Of a stretch of DNA of 64,000 nucleotides, positions 11,628-18,456 are shown piece by piece (position 1 is the first letter of the stretch; each line of letters opens with the position of its first letter). Both the position numbers and the translations under genes were made by a program. Below the pieces are notes generated by a model. It saw only the letters and a list, made by a program, of their open reading frames with translations, ran no database searches and was not told the origin of the DNA. This DNA is from Nitrosopumilus sp. Lineage in GTDB: Archaea > Thermoproteota > Nitrososphaeria > Nitrososphaerales > Nitrosopumilaceae. The stretch covers positions 1,248,001 to 1,312,000 of the forward strand of contig OZ240211.1 in NCBI GenBank assembly GCA_965197525.1, written 5' to 3'.

Positions 11628-12431
11628 CTAGTCTTCTTTGTTAGAGTTTTTCAATTGCTTGCCAAAAGATGCACCCAAGATGGGATTAATGAGATACGGA
11701 AATGTGTGTTTTAACCATACAGCGGCCCTGACAACGGATGGGACTATGATCTCAAGTCTTGGTGAACCAGCGGCCCGGATGATTGCTTTGGCTACAGTTC
11801 TAGAACTAAGAGATGTAGGAGAATATTTTGGCATCTTTGCAAACGAGGGATGTTCAAAAAAATTTGTTCGAACCATTATTGGGCTAACGACTGTAATCCC
11901 AACTTTAGTTCCCTTTAATTCGTGTTTGAGGCCTTCTGAGAACCCCAGCATTGCAAACTTTGATGCACAATAAGAAGCAATACCAGGTAATCCAAAGCTT
12001 GCTGCAACTGACGCAACGTTAACTATGTGACCTGAATCTCTTTTGAGCATGAATGGAAGAATATTCTTGGTACAGTATACCATTCCAAAATAATTCGTAT
12101 CCATCTGTGATTCTATCTCATCAATGGTAAGATCAGATATAGAACCGTATATTGCAAAACCTGCATTATTTACCAAAACATCAACAGAGTCAAATTTCTC
12201 AAATACTGTATCTGTCATTGCTTTTACTTGATCACGTTTCGAGACATCACACGGACATGCCAGCACAGTTACACCAAATTTTGATAGTTCTTTTGCAAGT
12301 AGATTTAGTTTATCCTCTCCCCGCGCCACAAGAACAAGATTACTTCCTTGCTTTGCGAATTCGACTGCGGTCTCTTTGCCGATTCCAGAGGATGCACCAG
12401 TAATCAGGACTAGCTTGTCTTTAAAATCCAT
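11628..12431 (-). CDS. Short-chain dehydrogenase/reductase
   Basis: ITGASSGIG, NNAG, YCASK. Start adjusted to ATG 12431 (MDFKDKLVLI). Confidence 0.92.
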   Translation of the reverse strand: MDFKDKLVLITGASSGIGKETAVEFAKQGSNLVLVARGEDKLNLLAKELSKFGVTVLACPCDVSKRDQVKAMTDTVFEKFDSVDVLVNNAGFAIYGSISDLTIDEIESQMDTNYFGMVYCTKNILPFMLKRDSGHIVNVASVAASFGLPGIASYCASKFAMLGFSEGLKHELKGTKVGITVVSPIMVRTNFFEHPSFAKMPKYSPTSLSSRTVAKAIIRAAGSPRLEIIVPSVVRAAVWLKHTFPYLINPILGASFGKQLKNSNKED

Positions 12432-12500: not shown

Positions 12501-12547
12501 TATGCTGTTCAATATTTGGGACTTTTCAACTGCCTGTTAAGTTAGGG
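12501..12547 (+). repeat. 47-bp transposon/MITE-like terminal repeat, copy A (uninterrupted)
   Basis: tatgctgttcaatatttgggacttttcaactgcctgttaagttaggg; 38/47 identical to reconstituted copy B; a further sub-repeat (tcaagttaggg) follows at ~12556-12566. Confidence 0.75.
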
Positions 12548-12615
12548 TTTTTTTATCAAGTTAGGGATTTTTATGCTGTTCAATCTCAGGCGTTTTTCAA
12601 TTACCTGTTAAGTTA

Positions 12616-12854
12616 TCTATGTGCGCTCTTTTTAAAGGTTTTCTGAGTTTGTACGTGTTTGAGTACAGCATCAGCTAGGAACAAGGTTTCACTTAGAAGA
12701 TGGTCGGATACATATCTATACGAGCTCTGTCACTCAGCACCATTCTTCATCCATTCATTAGGGTTAATCGCAGTTAGAATCCGAGCATGAAAACTCACAC
12801 TTAACATCGCGCAAATCCCTAACCATAATCTCCTGACATTCAGTCATATGCAAT
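12616..12854 (-). ncRNA. Putative bridge/seek RNA of the IS1111-type element
   Basis: Non-coding 3' end with two predicted stem-loops (TTAGGG/CCCTAA; GAAGA-TGGT/ACCA-TCTTC) whose loops contain target- and donor-matching segments. Folded by eye; boundaries approximate. Confidence 0.65.
12629..12636 (-). promoter_or_regulatory. Outward-facing TATA box in the IS right end (candidate circle-junction promoter)
   Basis: Minus strand agaaaacc-TTTAAAAA; in the circular form its first T is 30 nt upstream of GTG 14177. Confidence 0.5.
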
Positions 12855-14177
12855 TCATTTTTTTGCAAGTTGTTTCACACTCTTTACACTTTTCTTACTC
12901 TTTACACTTTTCTTATCCTTTATATTCTTCAAATGCTTTGCTCTTGCATTTCTACATGATTCTGTACGTTGTCTTTGGCATTCTGCAAAGGTAATTCGTT
13001 TTTTTAGCATCCAAAATATAATACGCAACATCTTAGCCGCCGTTGCAACGATGGCCTTGGCTGTTCCTCGCTTTCTTGCAACACGTTTGTAAAACTCTGT
13101 CAAGACAGTCGTCTCTTTTGCATGTATCCTGTGTGCAAGTGCAGCCTCTGTGAGAACCCATCGCACAGTAGCGTTACCGGCATGTGTTATCCTTCCATGA
13201 TGTGTTATTCCTGCAGAGTTTCTCACTGATGGAGCCAATCCAATGTATGATACTAGCTTGTCAGGATCCTCGAATCTGCTGATATCATCTATCTCTGATG
13301 CGATGGCAAGTGCTGTAAACTTGCCTACTCCGGGTATTGACATGAGAATTTGTACATATTCGTTGTTTCGTACCATGTCATGTATCTTAAGATTGGCTCT
13401 GCCTATGCGCTCATCAAAGGATTTTATGCATTCCAAATACTCTTCTATCCTCCAATCCTTCAGTCTGCGCAACTCTCTGTTAAATGCAGGTGTAAATGTG
13501 GGTCCTGGAATCTTGATTGACTCTTGGAGCAGTATGCCATGGATCATGTTCTTTATCTGAGTTCTGTTCTGCACCATTCTTGTGCGAAAGCGCACCACCC
13601 GTTTCTCCTCGACGGTTTTTGGAGGCGAGACATATGATGCATGGATGTAACCTCCTCTGAGCAGGTCTGCTAGTGCATGCGCATCAAACCTGTCAGTCTT
13701 CTTTTTGGATTTTGCTATGAGGCGTGTACGATAGGGATTTGACAGGGTCACATCCAGTCCCAGATCCACTGCAAGTTTTTTGTATATACCATACCACACA
13801 GATGACGATTCCAATACATATTTGGCATTTTTTGGAAATGCTGAAAACTCGTACTCAATTATCTTAAAGTCATTTTCAATCCTCTCGTTCATCAAAAGAT
13901 TTCCATTCTGATCTACTGCCGCAACCTGAAGAAATTTTTTGTGCAGATCCAACCCAAAGAACACTTTTTGTTCTTCTTTTGTTTTTTTGATTCTTGTAGT
14001 GGAAGATCTTGTTGCAGCCATCACCTGCACGCCCGATCTCTGTTTCATAACAGTATTATTTTTGAGGGTAATCTGTTTCTTGGCATTTCCTGCCTTTTTT
14101 ACCTTCTTTGCACTAAGTATCTTGGAATCTGCGGGTTTATGCTTTGTACCATCTAAATTTCTTTGTCTGTTTCGCAC
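12855..14177 (-). CDS. IS110-family DEDD recombinase/transposase
   Basis: FFGLDLHKK (D), VLESS (E), KKTDRFDAHALA (D,D), SIPGVGKFTA, SYIGLAPSVRNSAG (catalytic Ser loop), GNATVRWVL. Start is GTG 14177 or ATG 14048/14021. Confidence 0.95.
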   Translation of the reverse strand: MRNRQRNLDGTKHKPADSKILSAKKVKKAGNAKKQITLKNNTVMKQRSGVQVMAATRSSTTRIKKTKEEQKVFFGLDLHKKFLQVAAVDQNGNLLMNERIENDFKIIEYEFSAFPKNAKYVLESSSVWYGIYKKLAVDLGLDVTLSNPYRTRLIAKSKKKTDRFDAHALADLLRGGYIHASYVSPPKTVEEKRVVRFRTRMVQNRTQIKNMIHGILLQESIKIPGPTFTPAFNRELRRLKDWRIEEYLECIKSFDERIGRANLKIHDMVRNNEYVQILMSIPGVGKFTALAIASEIDDISRFEDPDKLVSYIGLAPSVRNSAGITHHGRITHAGNATVRWVLTEAALAHRIHAKETTVLTEFYKRVARKRGTAKAIVATAAKMLRIIFWMLKKRITFAECQRQRTESCRNARAKHLKNIKDKKSVKSKKSVKSVKQLAKK

Positions 14178-14345
14178 ATATGGTTAGGTATTTTTCAATG
14201 AATATTAATTTTAGTGGTTACAGTCTTGTAAACTTGAACATTCTTGAATGTTTGCAAATCTGTAACAACTTAAACACAAAACCAACCTAATTTAACAGCT
14301 AGTTGAAAACAACTAAAGATTTAACAGTGTAGAAAATCATACTAC

Positions 14346-16857: not shown

Positions 16858-18456
16858 ATGAGGACAAAAATAACATCGCTGCTGATAATGGCAACTCTTA
16901 TTGCCTTTGCACCATCATCAAATGCATATGCAGATTTCACACCAGATCCGCCAAAACCAGATCAAGAATTTAATTTAATTGGGGCTGGAGCAACGTTTCC
17001 GTTCCCTCTAATTGATTTATGGAGAGTTGAATACAAAAATGTATACGACAATGTAAATCTAAACTATCAGTCAATTGGAAGTGGCGGCGGTATCAAACAG
17101 CATATTGAAAGAACTGTAAACTTTGCAGCATCAGATAAACCGATGAGTGAATCAGAACGAGAATTGGTTCCAGGCACACTACACATCCCCGAATCAATTG
17201 GCGGAGTAGTGTTAGTGTACAACATTCCAGAAGTTCCTGACAGAGGACTCAAACTAACAGCGGATGCTATTGCAAGTATGTTCTTAGGGGATATTACAAG
17301 ATGGGACGATCCTGTAATAGCTGCAGAAAATCCGGGATTGAATCTTCCAGATAAGGAGATCGTCACAGCACATAGATCAGATGGTTCTGGGACAACGTTC
17401 ATCTTTACTGACTATCTAAGTGTCGTCAGTCCAACATGGGATGAACAGATAGGTAAAGGAAAATCGGTACCATGGCCTTCAGGTCTTGCTGCTGCAGGAA
17501 ATGAAGGTGTTGCGGGAATTATAAAATCTACAGAATACGCAATTGGATATGTTGAACTAGCTTATGCGTTCCAAACTGGAATGACTTATGCATCAGTGCA
17601 GAATGCTGAGAAAAGTGCATTTATCGAGCCTACATTAGACAGTATCTCTGCAGCATCAAGTGGTGTATCTGATAGTTTGCCTGCCGCAGAGGAGAGTTGG
17701 GTTGATGTATCACTTATCAATGCACCCGGAGCTGAATCCTATCCCATTGCTAGTTTTACATATCTACTTGTGTACGACGATCTAGAACCGGTAACCAGAG
17801 ATAGAGAACAGGCAAAAGCTGTAATCCACTTGATCAATTGGATGATCACTGATGGTCAGAGATATTCACCAAGTCTATTGTATGTTCCATTAACAGACAG
17901 TATTATAAAATTGGGCCAAGATGGACTATCCACAATAACCTATGGAGGTGAGCCATTGATAGGAGCAGAATCATCATCAAATGATTCAGAGATGATGATG
18001 GAGAAAGACGACGAGAGCGATACAGGAACACCACAAACACCTAAAGAATCAGACGGTGATTCTGCTGATAATAGTGGCGGCTGTCTAATAGCTACTGCTA
18101 CGTTTGGTTCTGAACTAGCACCACAAGTTCAACAATTACGAGAGATACGTGATAATCAACTGATGAGTACAAATTCGGGCATAATGTTCATGTCTGGATT
18201 TAACCAGCTATACTACGCATTCTCACCAACAGTTGCTGACATAGAAAGAGAGAATCCGATAGTCAAAGAGACTGTAAAGATTGCAATCACTCCATTACTG
18301 TCTTCATTAGTAATAATGGAGAATGCCCAAACCGAATCTGAAGTTTTGGGATATGGAATAAGTGTAATCCTAATGAATGTTGGATTGTATCTAGCAGCAC
18401 CGGCCGTGTTACTCTATGGAATAGGTAAGACAATAAAGAAGAGAAGCGACTCTTAA
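16858..18456 (+). CDS. pstS: Phosphate ABC transporter substrate-binding protein with CFI-box-CTERM-type tail
   Basis: GAGATFP, YQSIGSGGG, HRSDGSGTT, GNEGVA; C-terminal GGCLIATATFGSELAPQVQQLREIRD plus TM. Confidence 0.95.
   Translation: MRTKITSLLIMATLIAFAPSSNAYADFTPDPPKPDQEFNLIGAGATFPFPLIDLWRVEYKNVYDNVNLNYQSIGSGGGIKQHIERTVNFAASDKPMSESERELVPGTLHIPESIGGVVLVYNIPEVPDRGLKLTADAIASMFLGDITRWDDPVIAAENPGLNLPDKEIVTAHRSDGSGTTFIFTDYLSVVSPTWDEQIGKGKSVPWPSGLAAAGNEGVAGIIKSTEYAIGYVELAYAFQTGMTYASVQNAEKSAFIEPTLDSISAASSGVSDSLPAAEESWVDVSLINAPGAESYPIASFTYLLVYDDLEPVTRDREQAKAVIHLINWMITDGQRYSPSLLYVPLTDSIIKLGQDGLSTITYGGEPLIGAESSSNDSEMMMEKDDESDTGTPQTPKESDGDSADNSGGCLIATATFGSELAPQVQQLREIRDNQLMSTNSGIMFMSGFNQLYYAFSPTVADIERENPIVKETVKIAITPLLSSLVIMENAQTESEVLGYGISVILMNVGLYLAAPAVLLYGIGKTIKKRSDS

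Follow-up and report, generated by a model that had tools for sequence, protein, structure and literature searches.

Why does an insertion sequence in a Nitrosopumilus genome lie inside one copy of a 47-bp repeat, with an uninterrupted copy of the same repeat close by, and was it directed there? The window analyzed here, a stretch of 64,000 bp, comprises bases 1248001-1312000 of a one-contig Nitrosopumilus genome (2.21 Mb, 39.6% G+C), for which the related database records are Nitrosopumilus and Nitrosopumilaceae MAGs. According to our analysis, the insertion sequence (IS) is an IS1111-type (IS110-family) element that has probably been steered into the terminal repeat of a second mobile element.

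Three copies of the repeat are found around the insertion. Copy A (12501-12547, plus strand; nhmmer E 1.5e-10) is an uninterrupted 47-bp transposon end with the sub-repeats CTGTTCAATATTTGGG and CTGTTAAGTTAGGG, the second of which is a guide-matching empty site; the presence of such a site had been proposed in the initial annotation, and an intact CTGTTAAGTTAGG is indeed kept there. Copy B, on the same strand, is split, with its outer 44 bp at 12572-12615 and its final 3 bp (GGT) at 14187-14189, to the right of the IS. The break falls directly after CTGTTAAGTTA, within the conserved inner sub-repeat. Copy C (14285-14331, minus strand; E 1.5e-10) is inverted relative to A and B and has its outer tip at 14331. 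Removal of the IS (12616-14186) restores the 47 bp of copy B as a full-length family repeat according to its profile score (E 1.7e-10), and the rejoined empty site reads CTGTTAAGTTAGGT. This restoration and the pairwise identities given earlier for A/B (38/47) and A/C (35/47) were reproduced, and B and C are identical at 33/47 positions. One further 47-bp transposon end is present in the window at 2357-2403 (genome 1250357-1250403, minus strand; E 5.9e-9).

The segment bracketed by B and C had been described as a MITE of about 189 bp. Its length was reproduced (44 + 145 = 189 bp without the IS), and the unit has inverted termini (33/47) and no coding capacity, as a MITE would. The MITE interpretation is at odds with two other results: no 8-bp target duplication flanks either the B-C or the A-C pair, and the interior (14190-14284, 95 bp, not assigned to a strand) has no second copy in the genome, so that there are no MITE copies with a common interior. 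The unit may consist of nested or tandem ends instead of being a member of a MITE family. Copies A and B have the unusual tip TATGC in common and may represent a local tandem duplication, in which case the unit could equally run from A to C. Homology with 19 relatives stops exactly at window position 12430, the start of a dehydrogenase gene. In two of these relatives the DNA adjoining the equivalent position is the inverted counterpart of genome 1381605-1382650, which points to a rearrangement breakpoint at or beside the repeat cluster; at the second breakpoint, we found no repeat common to both breakpoints.

The IS of the window, hereafter c1 (12616-14186, minus strand), is 1571 bp long. Since GTTA is present at both junctions, ending the left flank as well as the IS, its borders are ambiguous by 4 nt. 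Elements of the IS1111 group are characterized by a long non-coding region 3' of the transposase gene, subterminal inverted repeats of usually 11-13 bp and terminal extensions of 7 and 3 bp, and they are stated to be present in archaea (PMC11187229). In c1, perfect subterminal inverted repeats (ATGTGCG, 12619-12625; CGCACAT, 14173-14179) are followed outward by extensions of 3 bp (AGA, 12616-12618) and, on the transposase side, 7 bp (TAACCAT, 14180-14186), which fits the asymmetry of the group, while the repeats themselves are shorter (7-8 bp) than usual. The transposase gene (12855-14177, minus strand) begins with a GTG within the subterminal repeat and encodes an IS110-family DEDD protein of 440 aa. 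Both of its domains score above the gathering threshold (PF01548, DEDD, 71.9 bits; PF02371, Transposase_20, 86.8 bits), and the protein passes the NCBIfam model for IS110 RNA-guided transposases (NF033542; 226.9 bits, cutoff 140). Downstream of the gene lie 239 bp of non-coding DNA (12616-12854, minus strand), a candidate seekRNA/bridge RNA gene, compared with 9 bp upstream, as in the IS1111 subgroup. The insertion was precise and without target duplication, the rejoined site being a full-length repeat copy. The expected circle junction of c1 is ...CACATAGA joined to TAACCATATG....

Is the position of c1 a matter of targeting? Three full copies of the IS are present in the genome: c1, c2 (genome 1841641-1843211; 90% identical to c1) and c3 (genome 367750-369298; 87% identical to c1), the last with a frameshifted transposase gene (pseudogene). 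The motif interrupted by c1 is the inner one of copy B, a full 47-mer. That interrupted by c2 is a subterminal one, 23 bp inside a second full 47-mer (1843248-1843294). Both copies occupy the identical position and orientation of CTGT(T/A)AAGTTA|GG (2 of 3 full copies). The initial annotation had regarded IS copies in unique sequence as evidence against targeting. The location of c2 speaks for targeting; c3 does lie in unique DNA, and its guide has changed to match its left flank; end fragments with a left flank of this type are likewise located outside the repeat. Divergence among the three amounts to 10-13%, so that none of them can have arisen recently from another.

When the non-coding regions of c1, c2 and c3 are folded as an alignment, a stem-loop is predicted; the sequence variation among the copies is concentrated on both sides of its internal loop. 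In c1 the predicted target-binding stem-loop (12757-12826, minus strand) is formed by an outer stem GUUAGGG/CCCUAAU and an inner stem CGCG/UGCG, with the guides flanking the internal loop. Predicted guide 1, on the 5' side of the loop (12799-12806, minus strand), reads UGUUAAGU in the RNA of c1, the same as the plus-strand left flank TGTTAAGT, and becomes UGUAAAGU in c2 and AUAAAAGG in c3. The corresponding left flanks are TGTTAAGT-TA, TGTAAAGT-TA and ATAAAAGG-TTA. Guide 1 equals the copy's own left flank at 8/8 positions in all three copies, and its changes, one in c2 and five in c3, are all mirrored in the targets. Predicted guide 2 of c1 (12773-12782, minus strand; RNA GGAUUCUAAC) pairs through its 3' part, UCUAAC, with the plus-strand GTTAGG at the junction, by five Watson-Crick pairs and one G-U pair. 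This 3' side of the loop (..UCUAAC in c1, ..GCCUAAC in c2) pairs across the junction with GTTAGG or GTTAGGT. In c3, guide 2 pairs only with GTTA and has no match beyond it in the right flank; it is of the repeat type and would suit the site GTTAGGTT instead, so that c3 looks like a half-retargeted or rearranged copy.

In tested IS1111 seekRNAs the top-strand complement lies 5' of the bottom-strand complement and the two matches overlap in the target (PMC11187229). The order and overlap of the two guide matches described here, top-strand complement first, agree with this at the level of sequence and fold. A search of the IS against Rfam matched no family. By analogy with tested IS1111 and IS110 elements, we infer that an RNA from 12616-12854 is produced and guides insertion.

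As the initial annotation had supposed, the 47-mer is a multicopy mobile-element end, which is evident from its copy number, from an exact target duplication and from its adjacency to transposase genes. Twenty-nine nhmmer matches at E<=0.01 are present in the 2.21-Mb genome, far beyond chance, and a profile search found that two further species of the genus have well-conserved copies. Conservation within the consensus is strongest at the tip, TACACTGTT, and over the inner motif CTGTTAA(A/G)TTAGGG. An inverted pair of 47-mers, 96% identical, bounds an element of 17,654 bp (genome 1581627-1599280) with the exact 8-bp target duplication TTATCTTC on both sides, and at a second pair (genome 95414-96521, 1108 bp) the duplication matches at 7 of 8 positions. 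Each end of the 17.6-kb element has two or three extra copies of the motif, spaced by about 38 bp; in the family, whose ends comprise 47-bp terminal inverted repeats and subterminal repeats, the short target motif occurs 2-4 times per end. Among the genes of the 17.6-kb element is one for a zinc-ribbon DDE protein of 460 aa (Pfam DDE_Tnp_IS240, 57.3 bits, cutoff 27; NCBIfam IS6, 105 bits, below the cutoff of 125). In another species (genome G078), orthologues of this protein with 68-70% identity are found in four places at a distance of about 200 bp from copies of this repeat, whose tip faces outward. Most pairs of the 47-mer are without target duplication, many copies are solo and intergenic, and a comparison of the interiors between repeat copies within the genome revealed no shared gene.

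The IS6 family is known for small size, an 8-bp duplication, ends of 15-20 bp with a GG tip, cTGTt / caaa motifs and, in clade i, a zinc-finger form of the transposase of about 450 aa (PMC7986276). The host element resembles IS6 / IS26 in its 8-bp duplication, its CTGTT and CAA(A/T) end motifs, its DDE_Tnp_IS240 domain and its zinc-finger transposase of about 450 aa as in clade i. It differs in its TA instead of GG tips, in its 47-bp ends with doubled motif and subterminal repeats, in its size of 17.6 kb and in a transposase score under the NCBIfam IS6 cutoff. Because these marks are only partly shared, we refer to it as an IS6-like DDE transposon, which we do not place within the IS6 family.

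Further observations were made on this family and its surroundings. The cargo of the 17.6-kb transposon (L001:1128-18781) comprises a Schlafen AlbA_2 / HEPN-like protein and several large ORFs without family match, and may be of a defence type. The transposon shares its 8-bp site with a neighboring mini-element of 58 bp (genome 1581561-1581618), resulting in three target copies; this mini-element has GG-tipped IS6-like ends (GGTTCTGTTAA...TTAACAGAACC) and is flanked by TTATCTTA and TTATCTTC. A unit of 1767 bp between two 47-mers (genome 590137-591903; L002:638-2404) carries a protein of 429 aa, which we considered as a transposase and rejected: its sole recognizable part is an N-terminal winged-helix domain (WING-49) that is widespread in the genus, where it recurs in hundreds of varied proteins.

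How many of the possible landing sites are filled? The exact 12-mers TGTTAAGTTAGG and TGTAAAGTTAGG occur three and six times in the genome, compared with about 0.5 expected by chance for each, and 8 of these 9 sites lie within 150 bp of a repeat match, a zone that makes up 0.45% of the genome. All nine are empty, including the one in copy A, 71 bp away from c1, and four in the 17.6-kb element. No IS lineage has more than one copy, despite these vacant matching sites. Only two insertions were seen in the motif, and both are old (copies 87-90% identical). The provision of safe multicopy landing sites and a disabling of the host element, both suggested in the initial annotation, are conjectural, and any effect of the IS on its host transposon is likewise put forward here as a conjecture.

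We consider the following mechanism likely. The sequence at 12616-14186 is an IS1111-type IS whose 3' non-coding region probably encodes a seekRNA/bridge-type RNA. The two guides in the target loop of this RNA would specify TGT(T/A)AAGT-TA-GG, a short motif that is repeated in the IS6-like transposon ends and serves as landing site, and the IS would thereby land inside those ends, entering them site- and orientation-specifically and without target duplication. The core of the earlier proposal, that an IS of this type is steered into an end repeat of a different mobile element, holds in view of the transposon nature of the repeat, the common motif position of c1 and c2 and the covariation of the guides with their targets; c3 lies outside the repeat. 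A more far-reaching version seems possible to us, if doubtful: the IS lineage may track a transposase-binding motif by retuning its guides (c1 TGTTAAGT, c2 TGTAAAGT, different variants of the motif), and each insertion would split the transposon tip from the inner binding sites. If true, this would be a case of parasite-on-parasite interference between two classes of mobile elements in ammonia-oxidising archaea.

Alternatively, the match to a transposon end may be incidental, in that the repeat happens to be rich in the 12-nt word specified by the guide, the mobile nature of the repeat is unselected, and the IS is merely site-specific like any IS1111 element. Guides are freely reprogrammable, matching sites are rarely occupied, and c3 as well as relatives in other species use unrelated targets, all of which would be expected from an incidental match. 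We nevertheless judge it improbable, as the diverged lineages c1 and c2 each follow a different variant of the same motif, c3 retains a repeat-type guide 2 (GTTAGGTT), and a sister IS in the same genome likewise lies in a multicopy repeat. This sister IS (genome ~864769-866275, L079; 49% transposase identity, same end sequences) interrupts a different repeat of about 660 bp, of which two intact empty copies (at about 390300-390960 and 2084241-2084903) show that the insertion was precise and free of duplication.

The inverted orientation of B and C on either side of the IS could also suggest one composite unit, in which IS6-like ends would enclose the IS110-type gene as cargo and the DDE transposase would mobilize it. 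This is very unlikely, since the IS interrupts B after 44 of its 47 positions and does not lie between two whole ends, no 8-bp duplication surrounds A-C or B-C, an inverted partner is absent within 214 bp of c2 and any repeat is absent at c3, the guide of each copy matches its own junction, and no further B-IS-C unit with 8-bp duplications was found in the genome. That the 47-mer has a regulatory or structural role in the host, as its many solo intergenic copies and the lack of target duplications at most pairs might suggest, is hardly credible in view of the exact 8-bp duplication around the 17.6-kb element with its near-identical inverted ends, the DDE transposase beside the repeat in two species and the absence of the repeat from the orthologous loci in 19 relatives. 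Guided insertion into IS6-like transposon ends is the reading that we favor.

The insertion of IS1111-type elements into terminal repeats of the Tn21 family, REP sequences and attC sites is established, according to references given in PMC11187229 and to PMC12288879. The element of the window may be seen as analogous to IS4321/IS5075 in Tn21 ends, an archaeal counterpart showing a behavior already known in bacteria. Like these, it is inserted at a fixed place, and in a fixed orientation, in the terminal repeat of a DDE transposon family, has subterminal inverted repeats and a downstream non-coding region, and generates no target duplication. Unlike these, it has an archaeal host, subterminal repeats of 7-8 bp compared with the usual 11-13 bp, and as target a repeated motif of IS6-like 47-bp ends instead of a Tn3-family end. 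Repeated independent insertions are known for IS4321/IS5075, whereas here two copies (c1, c2) share motif position and orientation and the third is located elsewhere. The predicted RNA resembles the seekRNAs of IS1111/IS110 elements and the bridge RNA of IS621 in its two short internal-loop guides, which address opposite target strands and overlap at the crossover (PMC11187229, PMC11208160); as in IS1111 seekRNAs the top-strand complement comes first, and the sister copies display natural reprogramming. Compared with those systems, the RNA of c1 is predicted from sequence and fold, with no match in Rfam. The use of multicopy, non-essential repeats as landing sites is further reminiscent of ISPpu9, ISPa11 and IS621 (REP) and of the IS1111-attC group (integron attC), from which the present case differs in that the landing repeat is a transposon end and not REP or attC.

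Our searches in other genomes bear on the history of this targeting. An empty allele of the c1 locus was sought in 60 genomes of the same genus and not found; the nearest are about 75% identical with broken synteny, so that the locus is not comparable. At this identity and with synteny broken, the orthologous loci of the 19 relatives are without repeats. Metagenome contigs were scanned for exact matches to the empty site and, separately, to the IS end, and neither scan yielded a match; no close homologue was found among 400 genomes of the family. Close homologues of the transposase, with 70-91% identity, are present on ENA contigs. Distant relatives of the IS (45-53% identity) occupy 27 loci in 17 other genomes, none of them beside the 47-bp repeat, and those with readable ends use other conserved targets. 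It follows that the targeting of the repeat is a property of the c1/c2 lineage.

A literature search on Nitrosopumilus and IS110 returned no description of a case of the c1 type. The findings extend to archaea the bacterial pattern of IS1111-type elements landing on transposon ends, REP sites or attC sites. With c1, c2 and c3 they also provide three natural cases in which a guide of a predicted archaeal seekRNA/bridge-type RNA covaries with its target; this series is directly testable and might yield a recombinase that works in a different cellular background. In addition, they define a previously undescribed Nitrosopumilus transposon family, whose ends measure 47 bp and each contain several motifs of binding type, whose DDE transposase is a zinc-finger protein of about 455 aa and whose cargo reaches up to 17.6 kb.

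Other IS110-type sequences in the genome deserve mention. A second IS110-family IS of 1422 bp is present in four copies that are 96-98% identical (genome 1599294-1600712, 712167, 1421271 and 1995744). It was considered as a repeat-targeting element and rejected, its four targets (..T|TGAATGC...CATAGG|TGTTT) being unrelated to the 47-bp repeat. One of its copies is located 13 bp outside the 17.6-kb transposon, beside a 124-bp repeat that is present at least seven times. Solo copies of the end of the c1-type IS, which comprise its terminal ~185 bp with the 3' part of the non-coding region, were found at 1591571-1591752, 1838231-1838409, 2193073-2193253 and 18294-18435, and may be compared with the solo copies of the downstream RNA gene that PMC12288879 describes for ISPpu9. 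All of the solo ends break off within the apical hairpin of the predicted target loop, and two of them continue for about 160 bp in a common sequence that starts with TAACGTATGTGCGAAAC, which resembles the left end of the IS.
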